Below are positions 12,159 through 53,447 of a stretch of 64,000 bases of DNA, piece by piece. The notes under the pieces were generated by a model. The model saw nothing but the letters and a program-made list of their open reading frames with translations. It was not told where the DNA came from and made no database searches. This DNA is from Mytilus trossulus (Eukaryota), in assembly GCF_036588685.1 (NCBI RefSeq), contig NC_086386.1, forward strand, positions 75,144,001 through 75,208,000. The letters are read 5' to 3'. How positions within the stretch are numbered: position 1 is the stretch's first letter; every line of letters starts with the position of its first letter. Both the position numbers and the translations under genes were made by a program.

Positions 12159-13064
12159 AGACATAACACATTATTCAAATGAAACTAACAGAAACATAAA
12201 AAATGTATGAATGTAGAATGTACAAAACCCCGAGACACGATGTGCAGCAATTTTTTGAACGTATATACTTACAGTGTCTTATTTTTAAATCAGTTCCTTT
12301 GCCGGGGAACTGCACCTTATTGTATCAATACATTTTTGTTGATAAACATTTACATAAAATTAAATATGCGATTATCTAGACTCTAAAAATGTATGGCAAT
12401 ACTTGTATGTTCAATGTAGTTTCGTTTGGTAATTGTTACCGATCTATCAAAACTTATTTGAAAGTTGATCGGTAAATATGATGAAATATAGGTATTTTTT
12501 TATCAGAGTGGCATAGTATACGTTATTTCCGTTCGATAGTATAAGAGGATGTTAGTGGCGAGTTTTACGAAATCGTTTAGGTTTGCAACTTGCAGACAGA
12601 CAGGGGAGGTTTTGGTGTATTCAAGTATGTTTTTCGATATGTGCCTGTCCTCAGTCCTGTTAATCAGTGATTGTTGTGTGTAGCTAAATATATATATTAT
12701 ATTTGTTTTTCGTTCGTATTGTACAGAAGTCGTTTGTATTGTTTTACATTTCTCATTTAATGCCTTTTATAGCTAACTTTGTGGTATAAATTTTGTTCAT
12801 TGTTCCAGGCTGTGAGGAAACCTAAATGTTCTTATTTCTTAGTTGATGTTTGGTAGATACATAGTTGTCTCATCGGCAACCAAACAGAATTTTATTTTCT
12901 TTCTATATAGACACACACACCTCTATAAACAACACATAGCTTGACTAGTAATGGACAAATTCAAATGAACTCAAAAACGTTCATACAAACCTCCCCTCAA
13001 GGCAGTTTGGTAAGCTATGGATAATATTTTAAGAAGAAATATCATTCCTTTCAGATTCATCGAC

Positions 13065-13632
13065 ATGGCTGCTGCACTATTGAATGGAGATATCAAAGGA
13101 CATGCTTCTGCTGTAATGGTAGTATTGGATATTTATCCACAGATTATGAGAGAAATGATACCTAACATTTTTCCTCCGAAAGGTATTTTTATGCAAATAC
13201 AAAATGAACCAAATCAAACATTCTTGAATCAATTGAAAATTACAGAGAAAAAAATGATTTCAAAATTGGACAGTACTGGATACAACGAACTTGATACATC
13301 GTGCCTTTATAAAGTAATAAGATATTTTAATCTGCTACCACCTCCAAAAGCAGGATGGGGACAAAAGCCAAGACATGAAGACATAGGCCAAGGAGATGAT
13401 GTGGAAAGGATGAAAAAAGATCGCAATGATATTCTTCATCGCCCTCGAGGGTTTTTATCCGAATCTGAAAAACATATTTTTTTCCAGCAAAGTATTGAAA
13501 TCGCCAAACGAATCGATATCAGAAGAAAATCACTTCAGAGCAGCTTCGAAAGTAAGATAAAAAATATACAGTTGAGTGTATGCAGCATGGAAAAACATAT
13601 TGAGGTCTTAGAAAAATGTGCAGAATATCGGG
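13065..13632 (+). CDS. Coding exon 1 of the HEPN-STAND-ANK locus: DZIP3-like HEPN domain (HEPN-1)
   Basis: Acceptor ttcctttcag|13055, ATG at 13065, donor G|gtaaat after 13632 (phase 1). Translation has LDTSCLYKVIR...PPPKAGWG...GDDVERMKKDRNDILH, the DZIP3-like HEPN pattern with an intact R-x4-H motif (13422-13439). Confidence 0.85.
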
Positions 13633-14179
13633 GTAAATAAACTCATCATAGATACCAGGATCGAAATTTTGTATTTGCGCCAGATGAGCGTTTCGTCTAC
13701 AAAAGACTCATCAATGACGCTTAAATCAAAGACAATTCAAAATTCAAAATGTTATTTTATGTTTTAGATATTAAGGTTACAATCTATTTCTGCAGTATGA
13801 AAGTTATCAAAATTACTTAATAATAATAAACAAACCTTGCGAAATTTATCAGTACTTCAAGTATTTGAATTCAATTAATAGAGTTGAAATCAAACAATAA
13901 TAAAATGTAAAATGTGTCAAAGAGACATATTTCTACGAGTTTTTAAATCTATTTCTTTAAAGGTTAACATTTTCATTGTGTTCAATTAAAAATCTGTTAA
14001 TAGTTGAAATAGTGTTTTGCTCTTGCAAACCAGTAAGACGTCATATGTCCTATTCAGGAATCAAATTTTCAATAACATATATATAAGAAAATACGAAAAA
14101 AATAGAAAATTAAGAGAAAAAGTGCGAGTGTTTTGTACATTTTTAATAGCTGCAATACAATGATTTCATCATTTTATAG

Positions 14180-14278
14180 CACTGCTACAGGAAAAATCAG
14201 CGGCGCCATGTTTCAATCTTTATTATGGACAAGACATACAGATAAAATTAGATGCTAAAGACGAGAACGGAACAAATG
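14180..14278 (+). CDS. Coding exon 2 (99 nt, phase 1-1), linker
   Basis: attttatag|c ... aatg|gtatgt. Reads open as (A)LLQEKSAAPCFNLYYGQDIQIKLDAKDENGTN(G), in phase with the flanking exons. Confidence 0.75.
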
Positions 14279-14612
14279 GTATGTAAACAAAGAAAGCTTT
14301 GACGATTTTACGTTCCTTTTTCTTGTGCATACAAACAGAAATAGTGCAAAGTGAGTTATGAAATTTATTTTTCAAGCTAAATTTGTTTAGCATCCTCGAT
14401 CTCATGCGTGCGCGTTTTGAATAAATATATGACAGCGACGATTTCGAAGGTAGTTCCGGCAGCATCGTTTAGCGAAATGTAAATCAAGTGAAAAATGATA
14501 TTGGACCAGACTGATTCAAATATATGTAGATATGCAATTTATATAAGAATTATTTATTTTATTTAGAGTGTGTACGTTAACATGTTTAAGTGATTATTTT
14601 TTTTTATTTAAG

Positions 14613-14903
14613 GTTCGAGTTCATGTATCATCTATTTGAAAGACCCACATTTTGATGGAACCAGTGTCATTGAAAAGCTTGATGAAATAAAGGAAAAAAT
14701 TCTTACGAAAGACATTACATTGAAATATGCTGAAATAGGAAGTTTGAATATTCATGTTTCAGTTCTCGATCAATGTTTCTTGACAAAAGAAATACTACAT
14801 AAATCAATACAATACTTCTTATACGAGTTTTTCCGCGCTGCATCAATTCAATACATAAAGGGACATATTTATACAGTAGTATTGGCAGATTCATGTGATC
14901 TAG
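14613..14903 (+). CDS. Coding exon 3: alpha/beta module with a GS-hydrophobic-strand motif (possibly TRADD-N-like)
   Basis: Poly-T acceptor tttaag|14613, continuing into ORF 14636-14917 (DITLKYAEIGSLNIHVSVLDQCF). Donor after 14903 (gtatag) or 14909 (gtttgt), both phase 1. The domain label is inference. Confidence 0.72.
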
Positions 14904-16230
14904 GTATAGGTTTGTGACTTTTGATTACCTGTATACTTGCCATTTTGTAAACTATGTCATATAAATAGAATTCAAACCTTTTTCATACTCTAGGGAATAA
15001 TATTAATCCTTGACTATAAAAGTGAAAATTCTTTCTGAATTTGATTTGCAACAAAAACTTAATTATCGTTTGTCTCTCACAAATTCAAATGAGGACTCCA
15101 TGGATAAATAAACATGCAGTCTTCTCCAAAATGTTATGCGTTTGCAAGTGAAGCTGCAGATATGTTTTTGATGTTATGAATGCCTATAAAAAAAGAAGAT
15201 CATTGACAATGACACAACTCTCCACAAGGGACAAAATGACACGTAAATTAACAACTATAGGTCACCGTATGGCTTCAACAATAAAAAAAAACCTTCACCA
15301 CATAGTCATCTATAAAAGGCCGCGAAATGACAATGTAAACCAATTCAAACGAGAAAACACGGCCTCATTTATGTACAAAGAACTAGTCGTATAATGGTCG
15401 ATAATATACTTTTTTCGAGAGGTATATGTAATCAGTAAAACTAAGTAAAATTGTTTTTAAGGAGGATATAGAAACGAAAAATAAGTGGAAGAACACCTGA
15501 TAGAAAGAAAACGTAATTATGACAGAAAAAACAGTGATCTTATAACAGTTATCAAAAGTACCAGGATTATAATTTTATACGCCAGACGCGCGTTTCTTCT
15601 ACATAAGACTCATCAGTGACGCTCAGATCAAAAAAGTTAAAAAACCAAACACATACAAAGTTGAAGAGCATTGAGGACCAAAAATTCCAAAAAGTTATAA
15701 ACACTACCTTAAAAAAAATGGATTGCGGAATACAAGGATAACTTAATACCGGGGTGATAAAAGTGGAAAAGCAGATTTGGTCTACCAATTGCATAATTAT
15801 GTTGCTCGAAAATACCCATTATCAGCAAAACATATTTGTTCCGAAAAGCTTTTTTGCTTTATTAAAATTGGTGATCTGGTAACAAATTAAACTACAGTGT
15901 GAAAACTAGATTCCTTTACACTATGCATAGAAAATCCATTTTTAGTGTTATTAAAATAAAAAATTTTGAGATGAAATATGAAAAGATAGCTCTAATTACA
16001 TGCTTTAAGATAAGAAAAAGAAAAATGGGGTCAACGGACTTGTTTTCTTGCAAGATATAAGTTTTTATTATATGAAAATTACTTTATTTGAGTTATCTCC
16101 TCTCATTTGTCAAAGTTGAAAAAAAATGAATGAAATACAAATATGGCAAAACTATTTAGATATATCAGCCGTAAATATGATAAAACACATAACGTTCTAT
16201 ATTTACACCAAGAATTCTTTTGTTTTATAG

Positions 16231-16501
16231 ATAACTGTTTAACAGAACGGGTTGACCTTGTCTATCTCAAAGAAAAGCCGTCTCCAGTTTTAAAGTTCCA
16301 TGTTGAAGTAAAAGATTCTGCATTTCAAAATGAATTTGAGCTGTATAAAGAAGTAAACAGATTTATTTCTGGCATGTATTTGTCAGTAGACAGACAAAAT
16401 GTTCCAGTAAATGGATCAGCCAGGGAAGTTTTGATGTTAACTAATGAGCGAGTGGAAAATTCCACATCTCGTCATGAAGCTATTGAGGATCATCAGCTAA
16501 G
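16231..16501 (+). CDS. Coding exon 4: second copy of the exon-3 module
   Basis: Acceptor tgttttatag|16231 (phase 1), within ORF 16143-16505. Ends either at the AG|gtaaca donor (phase 2) or at stop TAA 16503-16505. Confidence 0.7.
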
Positions 16502-16941
16502 GTAACACACTAATTATTAACGGAAATGTAACTGCAAAAATATTGGATGTTTACGTGTTTGTCGTGTTTGGGTCAATAGTCGATAGACGTTTAGAAAATA
16601 TCACAAAGCAGATGCTTTGGTTTACTGTGGAACAAACGCAGTTAGGGCTTAATGTATACGATTTTTCTGTTTATTACTTTACAAATGCATAAAACAAAGC
16701 CCTTAGTAATAAAACTCCTATTAATTCAATTCAAAATCTGCCTAATAATCAGGCAGTGGTGAAACATGACAAACAAAACCAATTCAAGTATACATTATCT
16801 TATGTTCAAAATATAAAATGGTGCATGAATATAACATTCGTTTCCTTTTCCTGTTTGTTTTGCAAGATGTCGCTTAGATCTTTTTATATGATACGAACAG
16901 TTATTGGGCTTTTGAGACCGACTCTGTTGAGTAGAAGAATT

Positions 16942-17745
16942 GTTATGCCCCACCTACGATAGTAGAGGGGCATTATGTTTTCTGGTCTGTGCTTCCGTTC
17001 GTGCGTTCGTCCGTCCGTTCGTTCGTCTGTGCGCCCGTTAAGGTTAAAGTTTTTGGTCAAGGTAGTTTTTGATGAAGCTGAAGTCTAATCAACTTGAAAC
17101 TTAGTACACTTGTTGCTTATGATATGATCTTTCTAATTTTAAAGCCAAATTAGACTTTTGACCCCCAATTGCATGGTCCACTGAACATAGAAAATGAAAG
17201 CGGGAGTTTCATGTTAAAGTTTTTGGTCAAGGTAGTTTTTGATGAAGCTGAAGTCCAATCAACTTGAAACTTAGTACACTTGTTATTTATGATATGATTT
17301 TTCTAATTCTATAGCCAAATTAGGCTTTTGACCCCAATTTCACGGTTCACTAAACATAGAAAATGAAAGTGGGAGTTTCAGGTTAAAGTTTTTGGTGAAG
17401 GTAGTTTTTGATGAAGCTAAGGTCCAATCAATTAAAAACTTAGTACACTTGTTGCTTATAATATGATATTTCTAATTTTAAAGCAAAATTAGACTTTGAC
17501 CCCAATTTCACGGTTCACTAAACATAGAAAATGAAAGTGGGAGTTTCAGGTTTCAGTTTTTGGTCAAGGTAGTTTTTGATGAAATTGAAGTCCAATCAAC
17601 TTGAAACTTAGTACATATGTTCCCTATAGTATAATCTTTCTAATTTTAATGCCAAATTAGATTATTACCCAATTTCACAGTCCATGGAACATGGAAAAGG
17701 ATAGTGCGAGTGGGGCATCCGTGTACTTTGGACACATTCTTGTTA
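16942..17745 (+). mobile_element. HINE-like element with ~170-bp x4 tandem array (intronic)
   Basis: atgccccac (16945) / gtggggcat (17710) inverted repeats, (CGTT/CGTC)n microsatellite, and units starting at ~17043, 17213, 17383, 17550. Confidence 0.8.
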
Positions 17746-19399
17746 TTGTAAGATTTATCTCCCTAAACACTGTTTTTGTTGTCCAGTATCTCCTCTGTTA
17801 CCGTTATAGAAATTTATTTTACCAAATTGCTCGTTATATCGTTAGGATGTTTTGTCCAATTTGACCGAAAAGCAAGAAGACTCCAAATGAGTCTAATTTC
17901 CCTTTATGCATTTGACATATAAAGTGAAATTCATATGTAACTGGTAAACCATAATTGATAGAGACCCCGGGTCTTTGAATATGATACCCTTAGTACTATG
18001 AAAAGAAAATTAGGTCCAAGTCAAGGATCAAGGTCATACTCTTATTTTAATTTGGCTTATTCTCAATTCTGTTCCGTACTGAATATCACGAGAGTATATT
18101 CTACTTAAATTGATATTGCAATATGTAACTCATAAATTTTGTTAAAAGGGTAGGCACACATAAAAAGTGAGTTTTCGGCCGTTTTAAATTAAGAATTATG
18201 TGTATAGATATACAAAAAAATGCATAACTCATAAACCATACATATAACAGACCTAGGGTCTTTAGATTTGAGGTCATTGGTTTATGACCTGAAAATTGAT
18301 TTGAAGGTCAAAGGTAGATTTGACGTTCTAGATTTTGACCTTTGCTTTAAATTCATAAAAAATGTGTGCAGTCATCATAAAGCTATAGAACTTTAAGCAT
18401 TATATTACTAGCAATAAAACAAAATCAAACCGGAACTAGCCTTGTGTGTACCGGAGGTGTCTACTTTTTGTACTTACCTTTAGGAAACCGAAAATAGTCA
18501 TAATGCATCTATTTATTTATAAGTTTTAATAACACGTATTTTTGTTAAAAGGGTATGCATAAAACTCTCATTTGAGACCAAAAATGACATTCAATAACCG
18601 GAAGTAGAAAACTATTTCCCTTATTATAGGTGTAAACAAATTATATATGTTTGGAATCAGTGTATCATATGAGATTGGAAGTGATATTTTCTAGACAAGG
18701 TATCTCCCTTTTTCAGACAAAATGTAAAGAAAACATATATTTTCAATCAGTAAACAGTAACCTATCAATAAACGTCAATTATAACCTTTAGCAAACCGGA
18801 AATAGCTTCTTATCAATAGCTTATATATTGGTTTTTATTTTTTTTTCTTTCATTCGCAACTGTTTTTTCTTGCGAGTTAGTTTTCTTTAGCAAGATGTCG
18901 ATTACATGTTTGTTATATGATATTGCACTGTTAATTTGCCTTTGAAATTGACCAAGCTTAACCGATTACTTCTCTTTAATTTCAGGTCCTTTGTTCATTA
19001 AAACGAAATTGAGGTCATGGTCAGAGGTTAAGGTCAAATTCTGATTTAGGACTTTTCTTGTTTTAGAATCACCTCTCTCACTTTTAAGTATTAACATGAA
19101 AGAACTAGTGCAAAATGTTTGTCTTATTGTGATGAAGATATGACAATAACTTTAGTTTAAGTAAATATTTTTCATAAAATTTTATCAAAAGGTTTAAGAG
19201 GCAATGTCAGAGAGCACCAGGCAGGACTGTTCAACTAAAAAAAATTGATTTGGTCGAGCATATAGTCTACTCTTTCAGTATAACATACTGACTGGGAATA
19301 TATTTTATTTTTTTACAATTTTTGGTGAATTTGACATTTTTTTTTAATGAAATTCAATATAAGCAGTCATACTGCGAATTTTCATTGAATTAAATGGGG

Positions 19400-19735
19400 A
19401 AAAAGCCAGTTTCTAACCGTTTTCAATTATCCATCATCGGAGAAAAATAACGCTTATGACTAAACTACCTATATGGAAGTCTAGTAATATGTTGGTGTAA
19501 AAAAATAATGAAAATAAAATTTCTGGTATCTTTTTAATTTTTTTTTTTAAAAATAAGGTAAAAAAATGCTAAAATAGGAAAAATTGAGAAAATTGAGAAA
19601 AGCCAGTTATTTACCGTTTTCAATTATCAACCACCAGAGAAAAACAACAGTTATGACTAAACTACTTATATGGAAGTATAGTACTATGTTGGTGTAAAAA
19701 AAATAATGAAAATAAAATTTTTGGTATCTTTTTTT
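19400..19735. repeat. Direct duplication of a ~135-bp segment
   Basis: aaaagccagtt...accgttttcaattatc...ttatgactaaactac...ggtatctttt at ~19402 and ~19599. Confidence 0.75.
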
Positions 19736-21894
19736 CTTTTTCAAATACCACAATTGGAAGGTTGGGATTGATTTTGGAGGTGATGGTCCCAACTGTTTAG
19801 GAATTAGGGGCCCGAAAGGACAGCATTTTCTGGTTTCAGGATAATAATTTGTGTATAAGTATTTCTATTGCACTGAAACTGTACCACAATGTATACAACC
19901 ACAGGTAGAAGTTTGGAATTCATTCAAGGGGTAATGGGATAGGAATTCAGGGCCAAAAAGGGTCCAAAAACAAGCATTTTTCTAGTTTCCATACAATAAC
20001 GAGTGTTTAAGTGTATAGATCTCTATGAAATTGTACAAGGTTCAAAGAAAACGCTGGGATTGAGTTTTCGGGTTATTCCTCCAAGGGGGGTTTCAATGAG
20101 TGGGGGGAATTTTTGTTTACAATTTTTTAAAGAGATGCATATTTTTTTTTTCTAAATTTTTCAAATTCAATTTTTGAAAAGTTTTTAAAAAAAATCTTCA
20201 ATAGCACAGTATTGCGCAATAGATTTGTACGATTTTAGACCAGATTTATTTTGTGTCAAAAACCTATAATATGTCAAAAATTTGATCACAATCCAAATTT
20301 AGAGCTGTATCAAGCTTGAATGTTGTGTCCATACTTGCCCCAACTGTTCAGGGTTGACCTTTGTGGTCGTATAAAGCTGCGCCCTGCGGAGCACCTGGTT
20401 TTCATATGATATATAACAGTTATTCCGCTTTAACACTGACCCAATTGAGTCGAAGACGTTTTATTAAAACAGTTATCTCACTGGTTTTGTTGTTTATCTC
20501 TCCTTTACCGTAATAGAAATTTACAAATGTATTTTACCAAATTTCTCGTTATAACCCTAGGATATTTTGTCCAATTTGGAATGTAGCGACGCGAAGATTC
20601 CATATGATAGTTATTGAGCCTTTGAAACTGACCCTGTTTAAGTGTCTCCAAACACTTTGTGTTGCAACAGTTATCTTCCCTTATGCTGTTTTTCTTATAT
20701 GTACCACAGTTTAAGATAACGACACATTATTTTGACAATTTGCGCGGTAAATCCGTAGGATCTTAAGAATAATTTCGACTGAATTTTTCGGAGACTCCGT
20801 ATGAGAGTTATTTCTACGTCTGTATCTTAAATAAGTGAAATTTAATTGTAACTGGTAAACCATAAGTGATATCAAGCCAGAGTCCTTTGAATTGAGGTCC
20901 TTGGTCTACGAAAAATTAAATGAGGTCAAGGTCAAAGGTCAAGATCAGATTCCAAATTTTCATTTTGACTTATATATATTGCTTTTGTGTGTTAGATATC
21001 GACAAAAATGTTAACTTACCTGATATTTTCGACTTGTCGAAACATACATTTTATTGTTTAAAGGGTGTGTTTACATTTGATGGGAGTGTCCTCCTCTCTT
21101 ATACTCAAAATAAGCTGTATTTGGATAAAACTTATCCCACTTACATTAGGAGACTTAGCGTAATTTGATTTGAGGTCCGTGCATTAAGACCTTGACATTT
21201 GGTTCAAGGTCAAAGGAAAATCAACGTTCTAGATTTTGACCTTTGTGATAGATAGTATACATGCCCCTTCTGATCCTTTGCATTAGGTTTGCAGAAATAT
21301 GACATTGGAAAAGTCACCTAGAAGTGACTTTGATTGAACTGGAAGTGGCTTATTATCTCCCTTTTAAATGGGAAAAAGTGCCTCTATCATTGTATTTTAA
21401 ACATTATTGTGTGATAAGCTATACTTCAGGCCCAGACAAACTGTTTTTATCGTACTTGTTTTTTTAATCCTAAGTGAGTTTGAGTGGAAAGACCTCCAAC
21501 TGTTTTCTCCTCTATCCGTTGTTGTACTATAACTTTCATTTTACTAATTTCACTCTTAAAAGAGGGTCAAACAACACCAGAGGGACAGTTAAAATCCAAG
21601 ATCGAAAACAAACTGACAACACCATGGCTTAAAAAAAACAAACAAAAAACAGACAGACAACAATTCATTTACATAAGACACAACATAGAAAACTATAGAC
21701 TAATTATCACGAACCCCACCAAAAACTGGGGATTATCGCATGTGCTCCAGAAGGGTTAGAAGTTCTGCTACACATGTGGCACTCATCGTGTTGCTGATGT
21801 TATTACAAACCCTGTAAATAGTTTTAACTTGGCTCAATGTTAGTCAAGCATTTGGGCGTTTTCTAATTTGTACTTAATCGGGAACAATTATATG

Positions 21895-22247
21895 AGAGCC
21901 GTGGTGTAGTGGTTAGTGCATCGAACTTCTAACACAAAGGTTTCTGGTTCGATTCCCGTTTGGGATGAAAATTTCCGGAACTCAATTTTCGACTCTCCCT
22001 TGACACCATCTGCGAGTATGGTCTTGAGGAAACGATGATAGTCCGTCGGAAGGGGACGATAAATGGCTGATCCGTGTTACGAGAGAGCCATATATCTTGC
22101 ACGTTAAAGACACCCTTGTAGATTTCGAAAAAGATAAGGCTAATGCCGCTACAAGGCAGCACTCGCACCCGCAAAGTGGAAAGGGATTAATATAAGTTGC
22201 AAAACTTGTTTCCCAATCCACTATAGATAAATAGGTTTGAACTTAAT
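21895..22247 (+). mobile_element. tRNA-derived SINE (Meta/Deu-domain type, inferred), near full length
   Basis: A box gtggtgtagtgg, B box ggttcgattcc, central ccgtcggaaggggacg...gcacgttaaagacaccc domain, and a possible TSD ttatatg (21888-21894 / 22248-22254). Confidence 0.75.
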
Positions 22248-23961
22248 TTATATGCAATTTTCTTTCGCTATAATGATGTATATGCTATGGACTACAAACA
22301 CTCCTAGTTTAAATTTTTTGGTCAGTTGCGATGTATGTATACATAGCGGTTTGCCTCAGATGTATTTGTACAAATAAAATTGAGAAAGGAAATTTGGAAA
22401 TGTGTCAAAGCGACAACAACCCGACAATTGAGCAGACAACAGCCGAAGGTCACCAATGGGTCTTCAGTGTAGCGAAAAACTCCCGCACCCGGAGGCGTTC
22501 ATAAGCTTGCTTCTTAAAAATATGTATAAACGTGCAGTGATTATGGACGTCATAATAAACTCCGAATTATACACTAGAAACTAAAATAAAAATCATACAA
22601 GACTAACAAAGGCCAGAGACTCCTGACTTGGGACAGGCGCAAAATTGCGGCGGGGTTAAACATGTTTATGAGATCTCAACCGTCCCCTATACCTCTTGCC
22701 AATGTAGAAAAGTAAACGCATAACAATACGCACATTAAAATTCAGTTCAAGAGAAGTCCGAGTCCGATGTCAGAAGATGTAACAAAAGTATGTATGATTG
22801 AATTTTTAAGTCAATTGTATATGTAAATTTCATAAGATAAAAACCGTTTGCGTGCCAGTACGGAACAAACCAATTTTTATTTAATAATAATCATGACACC
22901 TACCTGCACGTCTTGATTAAAATCCAGACAAAAATCCCTTGTTAAAAACGCTTTGTCAGGAAATGCAGAGAAAAACACGGAAGTGCGTTACCCATGCCCA
23001 ATGTGCGTACAAACAGTTTCAAGACCATACGATTATCATTTTGTTTAAACTGCCTTTTTGTCGTCCGTTTTGTTTGTCCGTGTGTCATCACAAACTTGTT
23101 TTTAAATATCTTGAAGCATTTGAATGAATCTCATATAAACATGATTGTTTGTAATAAAACAGGTATTGTTGGAAAATTGATTTGAATATAACAAAATGAG
23201 CTTCCATATTTAGATGAAATAAGGACGTGCTGTTTGTGTTTTTTTAATGTTTTAATTTGTATCGATCTGATGAGTTAAGCCTTTTTAACAGATTGTGACA
23301 GTTTGTTCATATGTTGTGTTGTTACAACTCTGTAACAGCTAGAGGAGGGTTAAAAGTTCTTAAACACTTTTAATCCCACCGCATTCTTTTCTTTTCCCAA
23401 GCCAACAGGTGTAGTTGTCGTTAGTTTATGTTTGTTATATTTTGTTTTTCATGAACTTTGTGTGATAAATTAGGACGCGCATTTCTTCTGTTGAATTGCT
23501 TCATATTGTTCATTTCGGGACCATTTATCGCCCACGTTACGGTGTGGTTTTTTTTTCTAATTGTTCACGACATTTTCAGGATCATAAGGCTGTCTATAAT
23601 TGCATACATTCATTCTAACTCTGTAGGATGATTATCTGATCGACCATCCTACGACATCTCTTTATTTTTATGTAGACTTATATAGGTATTTGATGAAGAT
23701 TAAACCAGACAAACGCTTTAATAATAGTCAATTAAAAAGTGTAGTTTTCAGTTATCAAATCATACTATATATGAAGATTGAAAGTTCACAAGAATGATGA
23801 TTAAAAGATAAAATGTTTTGAAAAAACTTCTTTGATTGGTTCAGAAATTTAATTTATGTTTGTCTTTTAATTCATCTTGTGTATTCATGAATTATTGTGT
23901 TTAACACATGGTTTCTCATTGAATTGTTTGGATTAGTTATTCTTTAGTTAATTTCATTTAG

Positions 23962-24185
23962 AATGGCACAGGAACCTGTAGTCAGTAAAGAGGACTCAAA
24001 TTACTTCAAAATTGCAACATTGTTACTGAGAATTGCACCACGAGCAGTAAGAATAAAATTTGATGATGTATTTCCTGCAATGACTTTAAAAGAAACACTG
24101 AATTTGCATAAAAGTAAAATAGATGATTTAAAAACAGCTCGGTGTATAAACCAGGTACATTGGAAAACACTGTTTCCTAGAAAAG
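23962..24185 (+). CDS. Coding exon 5 (or first exon of a second gene): N-terminal half of DZIP3-like HEPN-2
   Basis: atttcatttag|a ATG(23963). SKEDSNYFKIATLLLRIAPRAVRIKFD...CINQVHWKTLFP is the typical N-terminal part of a DZIP3-like HEPN. Donor G|gtatgt after 24185. Confidence 0.85.
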
Positions 24186-25539
24186 GTATGTCTTACATTT
24201 TTAGTTTATAAATTAAATTCAAGAATGACGTGTCAAATTTTCTCCCAATTTCTTATTGTGACGTCGTGTGCAAAGGCGACCTTGCTCGATGACGTTACAT
24301 AAAATGAACACATAATTTGCAGATCATTTGTAAGGACAAACTGAATTCTATTGCATATCGTTTAAAAATCATTATACAGAGACTGATTCTACCATCAACT
24401 CGTGTGTGATACGATATTTGTATTGACTGTTTTTAATTTGAAAATTTAACTGTCTCGAGTGCAGTTGCAAAATCAATATTTATAATGATCATTATAATTT
24501 CAGTTCATAGTGTGTTTTTTTTTATATATATATCTTATATGAAATCCATATGAAAACGTAACAAGCTTACACACGGGTCAGATGCTTTTTTTGTTCTAGG
24601 GTGCAGGAAGCTGTACTATTATCTAATATACTCAAAGAAGTGAAATCAATGATATAGTGATAAATATTGGGTTTAAAAGGTTAAAAAATCAGGAAGCGAA
24701 GCAAGAAAGATAACTGAGTTATGAATTTTATGTATTCGTGATTTGTTAATTACCTTTTCGGCATTATGTTTGGTATATGTGGTACCTGCTACATCGATAC
24801 CTTGTGTAGTAATTGATTGCTGTCCGTTTGACAGGATTCCTCTGGATAATACCATATTTTGTTAATGCTTTATTTGTTATTACATAGTTTCCAACTTGTA
24901 TGCAAATGATAATAAGATATGCAGCAAGACAGAAGCTTTACTTTTACCTAAAATTGGGGATTTGTTTTAGCAATATTATTAAAGTACCACTTACATCAAA
25001 TTGAAATATTTTAATACTTTGCACAATTTAAAGAAACCTACATCGCCAAACTCAGTCAAATTTAACAACACTTACCGTTATCTTGATAAAATTTGTGTTC
25101 AGATATTCAGGAATTTTCTAAATATGCTGCCAAAATAGATTAAAAGCAAATTATTTACGTTATACCAAATGATTATAGCAATAACTGCCCTATCGTAGAT
25201 TAAGATAATTAAGTTTCACACGGGAATTTCTTCAAAAACATATGCCAAAAAATGTAGGATTTTTCTTTCACTTTTCTTATGGTTGGTTAAAACCCGAGAT
25301 TTATGTGAAAGGCCAAGCTCTGTTGCAAATACTTAGAAAAGCCGTCGTGTTATTTCTTTGATCAGTCCGGTAATGATGGAAGGTTATTGTGACTGAAGAA
25401 AAATTTTACTATATAAAACAATATCATGAAAAAGGGGTTAGCGGGCATTTTATTTATATGACACTTCATATAAGTAGAGGATTCCGAATATTTGGCAATA
25501 AGGAAATATTCTTTATAACGCACAAAAATGTCAGTATTC

Positions 25540-26320
25540 ACCTCAAAAGCTAACAAAACCTTTAAATAGACTAAGGAAGAAGGGATATAGTTACGATACT
25601 GTTGTCTGGTCATTTAAGATTGCATATTTTGGCGTTAATATTGATTCACTTATAGGGTCTTTGCATCGGAACTAAACAAATTTATTTAAAAACCAGTTGT
25701 TGGCATGACACGGGTTATGTTCTTCTCATATATGTTATGATGGTATGATATTTAACCCCTCACGGGAAGGATTGTGCCTGATATTCATATGATGAAGACA
25801 TAATCTTTCAATCAGTTTAGTTGAAGTCTGGAGCTGGCATGTCAGTTAACTGCTAGTAGACTGATGTTTTTTATGTATTATTGTCATTTTGTTTATTTTC
25901 CTTGGTTACATCTTTTGAAATCAGACTCGGACTTCTCTTGAGCTGAATTTTAATGTGCGTATTGTTATGCGTTTACTTTTCTGCATTGGCTAGAGGTATA
26001 GGGGGAGGGTTGAAATCTCATTTACATGTGTAACCCCGCCGCTTTTTTGCGCCTGTCCCAAGTCAGGAGCCTCTGGCCTTTGTTTGTCTTGCATTACTTA
26101 AATTTTTAGTTTCTTGTGTACAATTTGGAGTTTAGTATGGCGTTCATTATCACTAAACTAGTATATATATTTGTTAGGGGGCCAGCTGAAGGACGCCTCC
26201 GGGTGCGGGAATTTCTCGCTGCATTGAAGACCTGTTGGTGACCTTCTGCTGTTGTCTGCTCTATTGTTGGGTTGTTGTCTCTTTGCCACATTCCCCATTT
26301 CCATTCTCAATTTTATTTTA
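25540..26320 (+). mobile_element. 3' part of an abundant Penelope-like retroelement or derived repeat
   Basis: ORF-like end KPLNRL.KKGYSYDTVV...GSLHRN* followed by a repeat also found at 22372-22790 (opposite strand), 52175-52695 and 8370-8570. Confidence 0.6.
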
Positions 26321-26485
26321 ATTTTCGATATATCTCTGAAACTAAGCAAAATTTTAACGGTTGCATTATTGCATGCATCAATTGCAAATAAAAATATCAG
26401 GTGAGCAACACAGGCTCCTAGAGCCTCTAGTTGAGATTCCCATTGTTTCTGATCTAGTTTTTTATCTAAGGTGTTATTGTTTCAG

Positions 26486-26703
26486 GTGATCCTATATCCC
26501 AGTCATTTGATACAACACTGATGATATGCCTCCTACAGAACCTGAAAGGCATCCACATAACCAATCAAATCCCCTATCATACAGATTACAGTGTCGGTGC
26601 TGACCTCTCACGAATAAACATCTATAGAAAGGATATAGCCAACTCTAATAAAGGAACATTTAAAAATCAATTATTCACAACCTATTGGAAAGATATAGAA
26701 GCA
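26486..26703 (+). CDS. Coding exon 6: core of DZIP3-like HEPN-2 with degenerate catalytic motif (RKDIAN)
   Basis: ttgtttcag|26486 (phase 1). Reads GDPISQSFDTTLMICLLQNL...GADLSRINIYRKDIAN...YWKDIEA. Donor GCA|gtaaga (phase 0). Confidence 0.85.
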
Positions 26704-26998
26704 GTAAGAATGACTATTTTCAGTTGTGACGAGCTTTTCGTTATTTAAAATCAACCGGATCTTATTTTAATTTTTGTTTTTGCAATTATTTATATACGAA
26801 CTAGGATATGTGACATGTTTGATAATAGTCCAACAAAGATCAAAGGAACTATATTTACTGCAAAGCCCATACAATATAATGACAAGAATTTTCGGTTCAA
26901 TTGTTTACTATGATGATACATGATTATGAGTTTAATGAAGTCTTGTAAAAATTATTTTAAGGTTTAAAATAACCCTGTATTTTGTTCTGTTATTAAAG

Positions 26999-27167
26999 GC
27001 TGTCCTGCGACTAAGTGGTGGCATATTAAAAGGAGAATGCAGCAATTTAAAAACCAAGTCATATGTTGTTGCAGACAGGAAAAATGCTCTTAACAATATA
27101 CAGGCTGGTAAGAGATTAGTACAGATTGAAGTTGAAGACAGATTGGGCAAATTTGAAAACAAACAAG
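26999..27167 (+). CDS. Coding exon 7: end of HEPN-2 plus helical linker
   Basis: ttattaaag|GCT (phase 0). Reads AVLRLSGGILKGECSNLKTK... Donor after 27167 (gtttgt) or 27107 (gtaaga), both phase 1. Confidence 0.75.
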
Positions 27168-29044
27168 GTTTGTATGACAAAAATACTCATAGGCGAAATG
27201 ACATCTACGTGTCCAGATATATCAAGCGATTTAATATTCAGTATATTTCAGTTGTGAAAAAACCTTTGTATCCTTATTTTAATTATAGATGGACTTAGTT
27301 TTTCAGCCAGTTAACATTACATTCACATATATTTATTGCAGTTAAAGTTTAAACAAATTTAATAAAACTCTTAAACTATCCTGGATTTGTACAAAACTTG
27401 GACAGGAACTTGTTTATTATATAAAGCTATAATATAAAAGGAAAGTTTGTAAAATTTGTTATCTGTTTTTCTGTATATAGCATGTACATGGCCTTACTTT
27501 GTCTTTCAGTTAATAGTATATATAGTCTACAGTTAAAGTTTTAAAAACATTTATTAGATTCATAACCCATCCTGGAATTTTACCAAAGAGACAGTAACTT
27601 CTTACATTCTAAAGATAATATTTAAAGGAAAGTTGTCAATATTTGTTGAGATTGCGACTTGCAAAAAAAGTAGACGAGATACTAGGTTCCGCCAAATCCT
27701 TACGATTTACTTTTAGGATAATTACAAGCAAATTTTAAGCTTGAAACTGTTAATGAAAGCGTTTCTTTTAAGGAAAGATCGAATTCAAAGTTGAAATGTT
27801 TTTCTTTGTTATACAATAGCTTGAATAAAGGTGAAAATCAACAATTGTAATGTGTTTTTGATCAGGAAACAACAATACTAAAATTAAATTAAACACATTT
27901 GTTCAGAAAGGTTACTACCAATAGTAAAGATGTCTCATTGAATAAATATATATCATAGAATTTTCATTGCTCAATTTTAGATGAAAATAAGTCCTTCAGC
28001 AGCTTTTATTGCGACTTCGTTTTGAATAATTTGGTCATTTACCTGACTTACTTATGCAAACGTTTCCGCATCACTTTTGTTTTTAAAACACTTTTTGCAT
28101 CTATTAGTAAAAAAAGTTATCATTTGAATTATTAGTTTGATATGTTTTCATTTTGATATTATAATACTTAGAAGTCATATTAACAAACATGATACTTCTA
28201 TCAGCTATGATTTGAAACAAGAATTGAGAAAGTCAGAAACATAAACACAACCAAAAATAAATGAATTTAGCTATGGTCAAATTGCCAAATACACTCATGC
28301 ATTAGAGAGCGTGGTTTCATATTATCGAAGATTGTGCCTCTAAAGAAGCAATCTGAAGCTTGAATAACAAGGTGTGATAGTTTTGCCACTATGTGTGATA
28401 CAATTAATATTTGAGAGAAAAAATCACATGTTTATCCAATTTGAGCTTCGTGAAACTGTTTTAGATAGATACCGTATCATGCTGGATATTTCTCATGTTT
28501 CGGCTTAAACTGAAAAATACGAAAATATCAAAAATTGCTGATCATGACAGAGGCAAGTTTTAAAAATAATTTGCCATTCAATTATTCATAGTCGTAACAA
28601 AAGAAATTAATATAGAAAAATCTCCGAAGGAATGTGGTATACGATTATTCATATGTGGATTAACGTACAATAAAATATATTAATAGATTGCTGCTTGCAG
28701 TGCCAATGAAATAGGAATATCCTTGGGTTTAAACATTTCACCTAGTCTAAACTGCATCCGTCCTCCATGAGTTCAACTTTAATACAGTTATACGAAATAA
28801 TTTTCCTAAAATCTTTGACTTTACATATTTTGGTTTAAACATCGTTTTCATCGTCCTCTTCTCCAAAAATTGCGATGTGAAAAGTTGATTCCTACAACTA
28901 TCAAATACTGGTACTAGCCAAACTATACGTGTAGCAACTGTTGTGTCAAGCTTTTTACCTTTGCATGTAAAAAATAAGTTATCGAAAAACTACTGAAGAA
29001 ATAATACCCCAAAAGAAAATCAGCAAAACACATTTCATTTATAC

Positions 29045-30247
29045 AAAAAAGTATTGCAACACCAAACTCAAATTCAAATTAAAAAAAAACCTCTTTTTTT
29101 GTGATATAATTAAATAGAACTAGTTTATCATTATTTGAATCTCACCTGAGTTTAATCAATAACTATTGACTCGATAAGTTCTTATCTGCACATGCAGCAA
29201 CTGTACCCGTAAACAATAATACAGATGTGAAGTTATGTGATTGACATCTTGTAATTGGTCATCCTCGACTCTTAACTGAAGCAAGATGGCAGATTATCAG
29301 CATGAGAGAAGCAGGTATGTCGCTGTGACAATTGCACGTATTGTTGGTCATCACCATTCCACTACATGTCATTATGAGAATAAAATACAGAAAACAAACG
29401 ATGTTAAAGACCTTTCGAGATCAAGAAGACCCCCCATAACATCTTCTAGGGAAAATTAAGCATAATGAAGTCTGTTAAGAAGGAAACCCATTGCAAACAA
29501 TAACAATCATAAAAAGAGTGTTGGCCATACAGTAACCTTTAAACAATTACTGTTCGAGATCGACTCATCGCTACTGGTTAACGTGCGATAAGACCCTTTC
29601 GGGGATATTTGCATACGTATAGACACATAGTTACCCGTATCCAATATAGTGCAGAGCTCGCCAAAGTTGGAAATAAGCCTCGTTGAGGAAGATCAATTGT
29701 TCCAATGAAATTCTGTTTATCTTTTGGCTCGATTGCAGCCCGGATTGGGACCATAGCGTGCATATATTAGACACAATTGGGCGTAAAGTGTGCGAAATGA
29801 CACCCCAGTTCAACCACGTCATCAAATAAACAATGCCCTTCATCAGGAATGGTTGTTGCTACCTTAGCAATAAATTAGTCAACTTTTAGCAGGAATCAGA
29901 AGACGTTAAGAGGCGGTTATCCGTTGGAATGGAGGCTGCGCAAAAAGTATTAATTCTTTGGCGTATATCGATCAACCAGGATGTGAACAATCATCTTAAG
30001 ATTAATTTTGAAATGTCTGCAATTGTAAAGTTCATCTACAGTAAAAGTTGTAAAATGCATTTATTTTTGTACAAAAAACACTCCACTTTGTAATCCATAT
30101 TGTGGTTAGGTTAATCATTTTTTTTTTCATACAATTTTTGTTCGTTTTGATGCCAATGTTATCATTAACTATGTTTTGACATGATTTAACATTTTTTTTT
30201 ATATTCCATCCAAACAATCAAGGTGTTGCAATACTTTTTTCCATGTG
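29045..30247 (+). mobile_element. Decayed Tc1/mariner DNA transposon in the intron before the STAND exon
   Basis: 19-bp perfect inverted repeat aaaaaagtattgcaacacc (29045) / ggtgttgcaatactttttt (30222), TA at the right flank, and transposase remnants RWQII.MREAGMS, VKDL.RSRRP.IT and W..CSPD...(WPARSPDLNPIE-like). Confidence 0.78.
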
Positions 30248-31049
30248 TATATATCAAACATTATTTTTGGCAAGAAGTGTATGTTAGCATGCCTCTGCTG
30301 GTGGACTATTAGTCCCCGAGGGTATCACCAGCCCAGTAGCCAGTACTTCGGTACTGCCATGCAAATACGGATTTTTTTGTGTTATTAAAATTTGCTGTTA
30401 CAAAATGATAGAAATTATTATAAATTAAGGAATGTATCTTCCTCATGCAAAGCTCTGATTCCTTTCACGGATTTGGCTTTTTTTTTGGAACTTTTGGATT
30501 ATAGCTCTTCATCTTTTATATAAGCTTTGGATTTAAAATATTTTGGCCACGAGCATCACCGAAGAGACATATGTAATGCGCATATAACTCGGGTGTGTTT
30601 TTATACATCCCGTTTGAAAAGAATAAAAATTTACTCATTTTTTAATTTGCTGATGCCAACATCGATATATGTGCCAATGCAAACTATATTAAAGCTCTAA
30701 TTACAACAAAGATAAGACTACATTTACTGATAACCTTGTTTATCGATCGTTAAATAAAGGCGACAGTAGTATTATAGTATACCGCTGTTCAATGACATCA
30801 CTTCACACACAGGGATGTATGTTGCTATATAATTTTCTCAGGGTTAATGAATGTAGAACCACGATAAAACTAGTTAACTTTGACCGTACGGCTAATGTTA
30901 ATGTTTGTATAAGTCCAGATGTGAACAATTACGAATGAAACTTTTTGTATGCATCAGGTTCATACTGAATACTGAATATATGGTTACTTAGGCCATGAGT
31001 GATTCAGATAAATGAAAATAAAATCACGAATAAGTTTTTGTCTTTATAG

Positions 31050-34000
31050 GTAGCTTCATGGCGAAGAAAGAAGAAGAATGGGAAGAAGAGAGTTCATGGT
31101 TTGTACAAACAAAGGCATTTACCTATATCGTTAATAATTTAGATGAAAGACATTTGACTGTTGTAGGAAATCCAGGTATGGGCAAATCTATGCTTCTGCA
31201 CCAGACAGCTATATATCTAAGGAATGTAAAAGGTTATTCTATATACTCTTGTCGTGGACCATCAGATTTAGTTAGTCAATTTAGGACAGATACAAAACAA
31301 GTGTTCATTTTAGATGATGCGTTAGGACAGTACAGATTAGTACAGTCGAATGTTGACCAATGGAAACAATATGAAGTCAGAATTGCAAGACTCTTACAGA
31401 GTAAATCAGTAGTGGTACTATCTTCGTGTAGATCGGACGTGTTTATAGAAAAACAATGCCAAAGCCTTTTGATCTTTTCTGGGTGCCGATGTGATCTTAA
31501 TGATGGTGATAACGCAATTGATAGACAGGAAAAACTTACAATTGCGAAAAGATACCTCAGTCAACAAACAATTTCTGAAGTTATATCAGACGTGGACAGA
31601 TTTGATACGTTCCCATTGTTATGTCGTTTGTATACAGAGAGAGTAACCTTGAGCTCTATTAAATTTTTCCATGAACCGTTCAATTTTTACAAGGAAGAGT
31701 TGGATGGGTTTTACAAAGAGGATGGTGGGATAAAATGTTGTTCTCTATTTCTCTGTGTTATACACAATGGATACCTCAATCAGACAATACTGATGGATGA
31801 GTCTACATCTCCTTTTTGGCAAGAATTCAAAGCAGTCTTTGAAGAGTTTCGATTAGATCCAATTATGTTTCAAGAAAGCGTTCTTTATTACTTAGATACA
31901 CTTGTAAACCTTTATCTCATAAAGAAAGATGACGATTTCCATGTGTTACATGATAGATTATTCGATTTCCTTTGCTTCTATTTTGGTCAGCGCCACCAAC
32001 AACTAATGATAAATTTTGCTGACAGTAGAATTATCAGGGACCGAACTTTATTAGATACTTCACAAACCAGTTCAGAAGAATTTACAATTGTCATAGATAC
32101 ACAGAATGAGAATGATTATATTCAAAGATTGGTAAAAGATATGTTAAGTGGTAATATCGAGGATGTACTGTATAATCATCAGATGCGTTATATGGATTTT
32201 AGGTGTAAACTTCTAGCTCATCTTCAGAAATTAGATGACGATGATTTCACAGTCACAAATGTATTAAGCGAGTTTTTAGTTAATGAAAATGTAAAACCAT
32301 GCATATTAATACCTATTAATTTTGCATGCAAATATGGTTATAAAGAGTTATTTCATTTTTTTCTAACTAAAACTAAGGATATCAATGCATATGAAGGAAA
32401 TAATATTCCTCTCATAACAGCTTGCCGAAAAGGAGATACATACATGACAGGCTTGCTTTTAGATAGAGGTGCGGATGTTAATCAAACAGATGTTTTAGGG
32501 TGTTCACCATTACTTTGGTCATGTGTATATGGAAATTTATCGATAATAAAAATGCTTCTTAACCAGACAGCAGACATAGAAAATATTGAGGTATATAACA
32601 AGTCTAGTCCTTTGATATGGGCTTGTGTGGGTGAATTCTTATTATTTTGCAAGTCATTACATATTATAAAAGAGTTTCCTAGTTCTTCTATTGTAGATGA
32701 AGTTATTTCCATTCAAGTCGAAAATGCAAACGAACAATATTTCACTCAAGAACAAATAATCGATGTGTTTTTAACAGTGCTAAAAAATGGCTATTCAAGA
32801 GGTTGCTTCGAAGCAGAGGAAAAATATGTGAAGGGCACACCATCAGGATTTTTGAGTGATGTGCGAAACATACTAAGAATGATAAGTAGAGACGATAAAG
32901 AAGTTGATCATGATGTTAGTATCCAGTCTCATGAAATTGATCAGACTTCACCATTTATTGAAATTATGAATTTATTCTTTGATAGAGGTGTTGACATTGA
33001 CAAGTCTTCAATTGGTGGTATAACAGCACTTTCATTTGCTTGTATGGTTGACATGCATAAAAGTCAGTCCGTTAGCTACCTTCTTTCAAAAGGAGCATTT
33101 GTCAACAAATGTGACATAAAAGAAACATATCCCCTAGAAATTGCAATGAAACGTGGAAAGGAAAACTTAGTTAAGTTACTTGTTGACAATGGTGCTATAG
33201 TTAATTGTTCGGCTGATGGAATATCTCCAATAGATTGGGCAATTAGTAAACAAAATATTCTTATTGTTGATAGTCTCATTAATGCTGGAGCAAACATAGA
33301 TAAAAGCTATGAAAATGGGACTACACTCATTCATTGTGCAATAAAGTCTTGCAATGAAGAAATCATTAAATTATTGATTAAAGGAGGAATATCGGTTAAC
33401 TGTGTCAATTCTGCAGGGGAGACCCCCCTTATGGTTGCATTAAATCTTGGCTTATCAAAATCTGCAGCATTTTTTATCAAAAAAGGAGCCAACGTTGATA
33501 CGTATGATTCTAAAGGACAATCATCGCTAATGATTGCATCATCAAAGGGACATGTTGATATGGTTGAAATGATGCTAAGAGAAAAACGAAAATTTACGAA
33601 AAGGCAAACTGTAGATTGCCTTTTTTCTGCATGCCGAAATAATCACATGCAAGTTGTTAGTTTCTTGTTAAAGAAAGGCTGTGACATCAATATAGCTGAA
33701 CCAAAGTATGGAAATACATGCTTAATAGAGGCTGTTCGTGATGGGTATGCATGTATGGTAGCTCTTTTACTCGATAAAGGGGCAAATACTAATGCTTCAA
33801 ATAGCGCTGGGGAAACTCCTCTTACAATGGCATCTAAGAATGGCCATACTGAAATTGCTCGACTTCTCGTTTCAAAAGAAGCTACAATGTATGAGTCGAA
33901 CAACAATATTGAATGTTCTCTTATCCTTGCATGTATAAACAACCATTTAGACATTGTCAAATTATTAATAGATAATGGATGTAATATTGACTGTATTGAA

Positions 34001-35086
34001 AAGACAAATAAACAAACGTGCTTATCTTTGGCTAGTTATTACGGCTATGACAAAATTGCGGCATATTTGATCGAGCATGGAGCCAATGTGAATTCCCAAA
34101 ATTATAAAGGGAATACCCCTCTTAGGCTAGCAACTTTAAGGTGCCATTTCAACATTGTTAAGATGTTGGTTGAAAATTTAGCTGATATAGATATACGAAA
34201 TAAAGAGGGTTCAACTGCCGTATCGGCAGCTAGTTATCACAGAAATTACAAAATTCTGGCATATTTGATCGAGAATGGAGCCGATGTAAATACCCTTAAC
34301 AATAAAGGCAACACCCCTCTAATGCTAGGAGCCTCAAATGGTCATTTAAAAATTGTTCAAATGTTGATTGAAAACAAAGCTGATATAAATATTCAAAATG
34401 AAGAGGGGTTTACATGCATAGCCGTAGCTTGTTATCATGGCAATGACGAAATTGTGGCTTACTTGAATGAGCATGGAGCCAGTGTGAATACCCAAAACAG
34501 TAAAGGCAACACCCCTCTTATGCTAGCATCATCAAAGGGCCACTTAAACGTTGCGAAAATCTTAATTGTTTACAAAGCTGAAATTAATATACGAAATGAT
34601 ATAGGAAATACCGCTCTTATCCTAGCAGTCTCTAAGGGTCATTTAAACATTGCTGAAATGTTGGTTAAACATGGAGCTGATGTGGATATTCGAAACGAAG
34701 AGGGGTCTACATGCTTATCTGTGGCAAGTGGTAAGGGATTAGACAGTATCGTGCGGTACCTACTGGGTGAAATTGCTAGTATAAATACGGCAAATAATAA
34801 CGGAGATTCACCTCTGATGTTAGCCTCAAAGAATGGCCATGCATCAACTTTTAATATCTTACTTGATTACGGAGCAAAGGTGAACAACAAAAACAAACAG
34901 GGCTTATCATCTTTGGATTTCGCACGACAAAACGGACACTCTGACATAGCAGATGTTATTTATGAAATTTCACAAAGAGAATTTAAAGATAAAGTTAAAA
35001 ATTTAATTTTACTTATTTTATTTATACTTACTTTTTGGTTATATATAGTATTACATGAAGATATGTATGATGCCGACGAGGAGTAA
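31050..35086 (+). CDS. Terminal 4-kb exon: novel STAND NTPase 3 (nSTAND3) domain, ~24 ankyrin repeats and C-terminal transmembrane helix
   Basis: Acceptor tctttatag|31050, in phase with ORF 31058-35086. FVQTKA pre-motif, Walker A GNPGMGKS (31166-31189), Walker B VFILDDALG (from 31301), SSCR sensor, FPLLC and HDRLFD motifs. Repeated TPLxxAxxxGHxxIVxxLxxxGAxxN ankyrin units and a hydrophobic LILLILFILTFWLYIVL tail. Confidence 0.93.
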
Positions 35087-52696: not shown

Positions 52697-53447
52697 TTTA
52701 TACGCCCGTCAAAATTTTGACAGGACATATTATGGTATACAAATGTCCGGTGTCCGTCTGTCTGTCCGGCGTAAACATGTCACACCGTAACTTGAGAACG
52801 ACTTATCCAAATTTCATGAAACTTAAGATAGTTGTTTCTTATGATGGTCAAATGATCTGTATACTTTTTGGTGAAAATAAGATTAAAACTTTTTGAGTTA
52901 CGGCACTTTGTAACTAAAACAGGGGTTATGATGGTGATGATTAAAAATTTCATTTTTGAGTTATTGAGTAATTTGTAAAAAAGGGGGAGTTTTTTTTTTA
53001 CATGTGTTGTATCTCAAAAACAATTTATGATTATTGCTTAAAACTTTACACACTTCTAGGTATATTAATCTAAAGATACTTTTTGGTGATGATTCAAAAC
53101 TTTATTTTGGAGTTATTGAGTATTTTGTTAAACAGGGGAGGGTTTTTTTACATGTCGCGTCGTATCTCAAAATTAATTTATGATTATTGCTTAAAACTTT
53201 ACACACTGCTTTGTTATATTAATCTAAAGATCTGTATACTTTTTGGTTTTGATTCAAAATTTTATTTTAGTGATATTTAGTTTGAAAAAAAAAAAAAACA
53301 GGGTTGGGGGTTTCACATGTCCCGCCGTGTCTCAAAAACAATATATGGTTATTGCTTAAAACTTTCTCAGAAACTATTTATGATTATTGCATAAAACTTC
53401 CACACAAGACGTTGGGCGTATCATGCACTCATGGCACAGCTGTTTAT
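52697..53447 (+). mobile_element. HINE-like element nested in a dispersed repeat
   Basis: atacgccc (52700) / gggcgtat (53414) inverted repeats, (CTGT)n stretch and internal tandem units. The host repeat resumes at ~53452 (ggtcaggttgttgtctctttgacacattcccc). Confidence 0.75.

Follow-up and report, generated by a model that had tools for sequence, protein, structure and literature searches.

HEPN domains joined to STAND-type nucleoside triphosphatases (NTPases) have been described in bivalves in silico. A DZIP3-like HEPN is fused to NACHT, ankyrin, and CARD domains, with an expansion in the oyster (PMC3710099), the pearl oyster has more than 50 HEPN-NACHT genes (PMC9646362), and TRADD-N occurs with HEPN, STAND, ankyrins, and RIG-I-like receptors (RLRs) in bivalves and other marine invertebrates (PMC8195603). 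SAMD9 is a STAND-like tRNase (PMC10246899), whose sensor clusters with the sensor of Avs5 (PMC13581612), and the Walker A motif of Avs5 is required for immunity (10.1101/2025.07.08.663546). In the literature found, the term nSTAND3 appears for Avs5, fungal NLRs, and an iflavirus. Here, I analyzed a stretch of 64,000 nucleotides of the mussel Mytilus trossulus (NC_086386.1, positions 75,144,001 to 75,208,000; hereafter the window). A gene on its plus strand encodes, in this order, a HEPN domain with an intact catalytic motif (HEPN1), two small domains (X1 and X2), a degenerate HEPN domain (HEPN2), an nSTAND3 NTPase, an ankyrin array, and a predicted C-terminal membrane helix. An initial annotation, made from the letters alone, had read the locus as a candidate immune receptor with HEPN RNase effectors.

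The gene is real and expressed. The initial annotation had joined eight exons (13065-13632, 14180-14278, 14613-14903, 16231-16501, 23962-24185, 26486-26703, 26999-27167, and 31050-35086), with all introns GT-AG, into 5877 nt or 1958 codons with a single terminal stop. The exons do join in a single frame, while two borders had to be changed. The exon 3 donor used in one contig lies at 14910, six bases past the donor first chosen, so that exon 3 (14613-14909) is 297 nt in length and the protein has 1960 residues. Contigs of the sequencing runs X1 and X3 depart from the genome at a splice acceptor before 13055; thus, at least one unplaced exon lies upstream of exon 1 (13055-13632), whose ATG is at 13065. 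The exon order is matched by P0005 (exons 2-8), P0013 (exons 1 and 3-7), and P0010 (exons 1-4), and, like these, all of the named homologues are from Mytilus species. Since single homologous proteins cover the exons in order, the exon set is beyond chance.

Parts of exon 8 were found in 17 runs, none of which is recorded as RNA, and the contigs of seven of them were aligned. The counted junctions all come from run X1, whose RNA status is guessed, and it is the GT-AG joints themselves that establish splicing. A contig abutting exons 2 and 3 supports this junction, and another joins exons 3 and 4 at GT..AG. One 729-nt contig has exon 6 and exon 8 with a gap of the length of exon 7, so that a HEPN exon is joined in a transcript to the exon starting at 31050, as first predicted. 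Junctions 1-2 and 5-6 were left uncounted, having fewer than 31 letters on the far side. It was also observed that contigs of run X2 run unspliced over both borders of exon 7 (26965-27341), which reflects intron retention, pre-mRNA, or DNA.

In exon 8, the nSTAND3 domain (31100-31558) matches PF20720 with an E-value of 4e-21 and 75.7 bits over model positions 1-153 of 155, and its Walker A (GNPGMGKS, 31166-31189) and Walker B (VFILDD) motifs are intact, which bears out the original naming of the NTPase. The ankyrin array (32297-34969; Pfam E-values from 1e-172 to 1e-86) has about 24 repeats by eye and 17 by a self-built hidden Markov model, with an insertion of about 100 residues after the fourth repeat; when the first 483 residues of exon 8 were compared with solved structures, all 60 of the matches listed were to ankyrins. 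As for HEPN_DZIP3 (PF18738), exon 6 lies over the cut-off (4e-13) and exon 5 gives 0.018, while exon 1 gives 4e-4, below the curated cut-off, with close relatives that pass and atlas features at 0.97 to PF18738 clusters. Pfam therefore recovers HEPN_DZIP3, nSTAND3, and ankyrins in the predicted order, and together with the splice of exon 6 to exon 8 this gives the layout of effector, STAND NTPase, and repeat sensor.

The last 30 residues contain a hydrophobic helix (mean hydropathy 2.36), predicted to be a transmembrane tail anchor (35000-35056), which is followed by a short acidic tail and the stop codon ending at 35086. Read-through into an intron was ruled out as the origin of this helix, as the alignment with P0001 spans it and P0002 and P0004 have a helix of this kind at their C-terminal ends. 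Three close relatives have such a helix versus one of 20 long paralogous exons; thus, the anchor is a trait of the subfamily.

It was revealed that the two HEPN domains differ in their catalytic motifs. HEPN1, encoded by exon 1, has RNDILH (residues 120-125; 13422-13439), which satisfies Rx4-6H, and its residues are kept in most of the 86 aligned relatives (R in 80, N in 81, and H in 80). HEPN2 is divided among exon 5 (23962-24185), which encodes its N-terminal part and has its own ATG, exon 6 (26486-26703), which encodes the core, and exon 7 (26999-27167), which encodes its end and a helical linker. The motif of HEPN2, RKDIAN (26626-26643), retains the Arg, has lost the Asn and the His, and fails Rx4-6H. 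Of the two RNase effectors first proposed, both are HEPN domains and HEPN1 has an intact RNxxxH, while HEPN2 is without the catalytic His. Since it keeps the Arg and has Asn in place of His, HEPN2 could be a gate or a lopsided partner. The genome has at least 150 matches to exon-6-type HEPN exons, of which 40 were checked, namely the top 20 and a further 20 chosen by eye for lying beside nSTAND3 exons; the motif is intact in 39 of the 40, including all 20 of the second group. HEPN2 is 58-60% identical to its counterparts in P0005 and P0013, similar to the neighboring domains, and all three have R-K-D-x-x-N. In the tree, these three are grouped together and nested among the intact HEPNs of ordinary HEPN-nSTAND3-ankyrin proteins.

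The structure of the exon 1-4 product was approached through an AlphaFold model (pLDDT 82) of P0010, which is 57% identical to it. Its structural matches include Csm6 (Z 7.7, root-mean-square deviation 3.8, 115 aligned residues), AbiF, Swt1, Roquin, and Cas13, with Z-scores of 5.8-7.7, and a Foldseek search with this three-domain model gave no match at an E-value of 0.001 or below.

Is the pairing of an intact and a degenerate HEPN common? Single-HEPN proteins are intact in 114 of 127 cases, and exactly one copy is intact in 21 of 23 multi-HEPN proteins, the exceptions being P0059 and P0074; this set is biased, as it was gathered with an intact HEPN query, has many kin rows, and includes this gene and the possibly broken frame of P0063. 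In a tree built from 74 domains of 53 selected proteins, which left out most single-HEPN proteins and pieces shorter than 110 residues, the degenerate label needs seven changes, of which at least six are forced by well-supported branches. Plain redundancy after duplication could yield the same pattern of one intact copy. A single-chain model of P0044, a tandem of a degenerate and an intact HEPN built from a 16-row alignment, has a pLDDT of 87.5 and a pTM of 0.58; both domains fold, with no confident packing between them. In engineered Las1, a one-sided His-to-Asn change (the WT/H6N chimera) leaves the enzyme active with a shifted cut site, whereas removing Arg and His together from one side leaves almost no activity (10.1101/760058).

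The two domains between the HEPNs had been entered as unknown. Exon 2 (14180-14278) encodes a linker of one strand and a helix, and exon 3 encodes X1. In the P0010 model, X1 has the order beta-alpha-beta-beta-alpha-beta, and its structural matches are ferredoxin/RRM-like with Z-scores of about 5. Of 33 relatives, 22 have a Gly-Ser (GS) between strands 2 and 3, and the traits given for TRADD-N are an RRM-like fold and a uS motif between strands 2 and 3 (PMC8195603). PF20694 is found in 18-58% of the members of its atlas neighbors (0.88-0.90). The Pfam TRADD-N models gave no match to X1 in hmmscan, so I call X1 TRADD-N-like rather than TRADD-N despite the fold order, the GS, and the PF20694 neighbors; TRADD-N was also absent from the listed structural matches of the cassette model, an absence that does not exclude it. 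X2, encoded by exon 4 (16231-16501), can be aligned with the latter half of X1 (probability 84.9%, E-value 6e-6) and, by its sequence, is a partial tandem copy of X1.

The product of exons 1-4 has counterparts at the N-terminus of other Mytilus proteins, whose first 400 residues match it at 48-58% identity and whose C-termini are unrelated. Behind this segment are CARDs and an RLR helicase (P0015 and P0012), low-complexity tails (P0009 and P0011), or nothing (P0010). Exons 1-4 are thus likely to be a mobile cassette spread by exon shuffling. The cassette seems to have been placed ahead of an ordinary HEPN-nSTAND3-ankyrin gene, whose own HEPN would then have lost its His. A scan of 45 longer relatives out of the 150 listed placed related HEPNs at the front of IRG-, GIMAP-, URGCP-, and Roc-COR-type NTPases and of six nSTAND3-ankyrin proteins. 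P0013, with an NDK inside the cassette, and P0170 may have been fused in annotation, and neither counts here as evidence of a real fusion. This locus was the only one recovered when the genome was searched with exons 3 and 4 (11 and two candidates, respectively, a lower bound), and no second cassette, RLR, or NDK match was found within 80 kb on either side of the window.

Several further observations concern HEPN partners. In Mytilus gene models P0015, P0012, and P0014, the cassette is joined to CARDs, with a complete RLR helicase in P0015, and P0027, P0040, P0037, P0038, P0046, P0082, and P0058 combine HEPN with IRG-like, GIMAP/AIG1, URGCP-like, or Roc-COR GTPases and, in one case, a glycosyl hydrolase 63 N-terminal domain. 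Exon 1 has its closest paralogue at G000:C12:55343124-55343684 (L001:2125-2691; 60% identity); this copy has lost the catalytic Arg and Asn, and some 41 kb downstream of it the same strand carries an intact HEPN exon. On G000:C7, three RIG-I-like helicase genes (47.477-47.493 Mb, plus; 47.594-47.629 Mb, plus; 48.482-48.505 Mb, minus; L063-L071) have an upstream single-exon HEPN with RNxxxH and an immunoglobulin (Ig) exon, with no CARD match. They are predicted to encode a HEPN-Ig-helicase-C-terminal domain protein, a possible double-stranded RNA-gated RNase in one chain. The helicase copy at 47.477 Mb has one in-frame TAG, and a fourth helicase gene (47.544-47.569 Mb) has no HEPN exon in the 14 kb upstream. 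The P0015-type fusion is a second HEPN graft on RLRs, and its HEPN subgroup apparently differs from that of the C7 genes. A survey of RLR N-termini lists Ig and has no HEPN or DZIP3 match (PMC8998645), and no report of the HEPN-Ig-RLR combination was found in a literature search.

The expansion of HEPN/nSTAND3/ankyrin proteins supposed by the initial annotation is large in this genome. At least 107 nSTAND3 exons were scored among 455 candidates, and a family search raised 595 candidates, of which 21 were scored. Twenty long paralogous nSTAND3 exons have open frames of widely different length, from 1138 to 2614 codons, and none of the eight proteins matching the NTPase region exceeds 73% identity.

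With moderate confidence, I propose by analogy that the product of this gene, a STAND-type protein, is a tail-anchored immune RNase gated by a ligand, in the manner of SAMD9 or Avs5. The predicted tail anchor would hold the protein on the cytosolic face of a membrane, where inhibition of the nSTAND3 ATPase by the ankyrins would be lifted by the binding of a pathogen ligand. The predicted oligomer would then bring the HEPN domains together, with HEPN1 as the presumed catalytic unit, and RNA would be cut. HEPN2 may have been kept as a pseudo-HEPN that restrains HEPN1 until oligomerization or completes a lopsided site with its retained Arg. The outcome would be cleavage of tRNA, mRNA, or viral RNA, with translation arrest or cell death. 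Autoinhibition by repeats, ligand binding, and oligomerization are extrapolated from STAND biology, and a composite active site made of two HEPN motifs from HEPN biology. A wider and more tentative idea, less likely than not, is a plug-and-play RNase immunity in mussels. A portable HEPN cassette would have been shuffled by exons onto STAND-ankyrin receptors, RIG-I-like helicases, and immune GTPases; in two-HEPN chains, one HEPN would repeatedly become a pseudo-RNase that gates or re-aims the other, and this gene would be a membrane-anchored Avs5/SAMD9-like switch, one of hundreds of nSTAND3 receptors.

Several results weigh against the proposal of a ligand-gated RNase. PF20720 also matches in 14 of 14 control genomes, over the cut-off in seven, and PADLOC gave no Avs model for the gene, so the kinship with Avs5 amounts to one shared Pfam family. 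The structural Z-scores are below 8, with HEPN matches interspersed among unrelated helical bundles, and contig depth on the exons is low, about 2-6, depths that cannot rank expression. Of the junctions first predicted, 2-3, 3-4, and 6-(7)-8 are supported, whereas no contig of the seven aligned runs (of 17) shows junction 4-5, the link between the one intact HEPN and the ATPase; a contig of exon 5 has 37 spliced upstream letters that, judged by bin depth, were not placed on exon 4 at 97% likeness. The locus may thus make two products, namely a short HEPN/TRADD-N-like protein from exons 1-4 and a pseudo-HEPN-nSTAND3-ankyrin protein starting at the exon 5 ATG, whose sensor would serve as a decoy or draw on an active HEPN supplied in trans. 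Read-through at the exon 4 donor meets a stop at once, the P0010 model terminates there, and the ATG one base after the exon 5 acceptor is where stand-alone relatives start. However, the splice phases match, the X2 and HEPN2 exons are joined in the gene models P0005 and P0013 of two other Mytilus species, and one mismatch could have blocked the placing of the 37 letters; I consider two products unlikely.

A signaling platform is also conceivable, in which the oligomer recruits adaptors of the TRAF type via TRADD-N-like domains while the HEPNs bind RNA or serve as a scaffold. The TRADD-N fold order and the GS of X1 speak for it, as does the recruitment of TRAF2 by vertebrate TRADD-N (PMC8195603), but the strong conservation of the HEPN catalytic motif and the intact HEPN exon in most HEPN-nSTAND3 paralogues checked make it quite unlikely. 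Hundreds of paralogue candidates and the modest identity of even the best NTPase matches would also suit a by-product of birth and death, that is, a shuffled, weakly expressed paralogue of little current function whose HEPN2 decayed through redundancy; in a filtered and tiny sample, seven of seven listed differences in exons 1, 3, and 5 singly change a residue. This is improbable, since the spliced 1960-codon frame is intact over 22 kb and the layout, the HEPN2 lesion, and the tail anchor recur in other Mytilus relatives at 55-75% identity. Finally, the same RNase output could answer non-microbial triggers such as organelle stress, self/non-self, or transmissible cancer cells, for the tail anchor is peculiar to the subfamily and infectious tumor cells have been raised as triggers for bivalve TRADD-N (PMC8195603). 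The presence of the cassette on RLR-type sensors of virus RNA argues otherwise, and such triggers are very improbable.

Elsewhere in the window, a single-exon TRIM-like gene with B-boxes, a coiled coil, and a beta-propeller lies at 54497-56218 (plus), and tandem TRAF-type zinc finger and F-box units at 59354-61831 (plus), with a further piece near 62971-63111. I take the latter gene to be FBXO40-like. The M. edulis model P0170 contains a cassette paralogue together with pieces of these TRIM-like and TRAF/F-box genes, a make-up that suggests the same neighborhood in that species. Satellite-like arrays of about 165-168 bp and an array of 20-40 bp are found at 7403-8013, 17041-17711, 52932-53365, and 44181-45046, and intronic repeats dominate the read-alignment tables.

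The general design is not new, as HEPN-STAND-repeat and HEPN/TRADD-N bivalve proteins have already been predicted to be immune RNases (PMC3710099, PMC9646362, PMC8195603). What is new here is the nSTAND3 core, the effector swap, the pseudo-HEPN, the TRADD-N-like insert, and the tail anchor. In agreement with the initial annotation, a literature search found no functional study of bivalve HEPN-STAND proteins. Nor did this search, which covered only a minority of subscription papers, find the mussel nSTAND3 expansion, the effector swap, the cassette, or the recurrent intact-plus-degenerate pairing; the source data of PMC8195603 and the tables of PMC9646362 may list such architectures, and PMC7773633 mentions HEPN only within a reference. 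Few animal STAND proteins with a built-in enzyme have been published, and SAMD9 has hence been called unexpected. A family of hundreds of nSTAND3-ankyrin receptors, sharing its Pfam ATPase family with a bacterial anti-phage system, would amount to a large part of mussel immunity that has gone unexamined. With this gene one can ask whether DZIP3-like HEPNs act as RNases and by what means an animal cell restrains a toxic dimeric RNase. It lends itself to a clean test, since one of its HEPNs is intact and the other naturally disarmed, and its cassette also occurs on an RLR whose kind of ligand is known.

Among known systems, the DZIP3/hRUL138-like HEPN-NACHT proteins of bivalves and cnidarians share with this gene an N-terminal DZIP3-like HEPN, a STAND NTPase, a C-terminal repeat sensor, a large lineage-specific expansion, and an RNase and immune role proposed in silico (PMC3710099, PMC9646362). 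In contrast to what is described there, this gene has nSTAND3 rather than NACHT, ankyrins rather than LRR, TPR, or WD40, two HEPNs of which one is degenerate, a TRADD-N-like insert, and a tail anchor. The TRADD-N expansions also combine TRADD-N with HEPN, STAND NTPases, AIG GTPases, ankyrins, and RLR-like receptors in sessile animals, whereas no DED lies beside the TRADD-N-like domain here and the Pfam TRADD-N models have no match; the passages covered name neither Mytilus nor nSTAND3 nor this cassette (PMC8195603). Cas13 and the engineered Las1 chimeras share two HEPNs in one chain, the latter with a one-sided His-to-Asn change like that of HEPN2 (10.1101/760058). Both motifs are needed in Cas13, whereas a pairing of HEPN1 with HEPN2 in cis is a proposal here.

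A canonical NLR was rejected, with no NACHT, NB-ARC, or LRR match at an E-value of 0.1 or below and nSTAND3 and ankyrins instead. RNase L and IRE1 have a HEPN RNase activated by dimerization, with an ankyrin sensor in RNase L and a membrane tether in IRE1. Their KEN domains are listed among HEPN RNases (PMC3710099, Table 1). However, they use a kinase or pseudokinase switch and a C-terminal KEN, while this gene has an N-terminal HEPN of another family, and membership was rejected, as the Pfam scans gave no kinase or KEN match. The analogy to RNase L drawn at first thus gives way to Avs5 as the closest bacterial precedent and SAMD9 as the closest animal one. Avs5 resembles this gene in that its nSTAND3 (PF20720) core is flanked by an enzymatic effector at the N-terminus and a sensor made of helical repeats (10.1101/2025.07.08.663546). 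Its effector is a Sir2 NADase and its sensor TPR/Sel1/PPR, neither of which was found here by Pfam; PADLOC gave no Avs model, and membership in Avs5 was rejected. SAMD9/9L have another nuclease fold and a TPR/OB C-terminus and are not known to have ankyrins or a membrane anchor; the Pfam scan of this gene gave HEPN and ankyrins only, without a SAMD9-type nuclease or TPR/OB C-terminus. The two share an animal STAND-like architecture with a built-in RNase effector, and SAMD9 is autoinhibited by its C-terminal half (PMC10246899). Human SAMD9/9L are two genes versus hundreds in the mussel family, and they are the best functional model for this gene.

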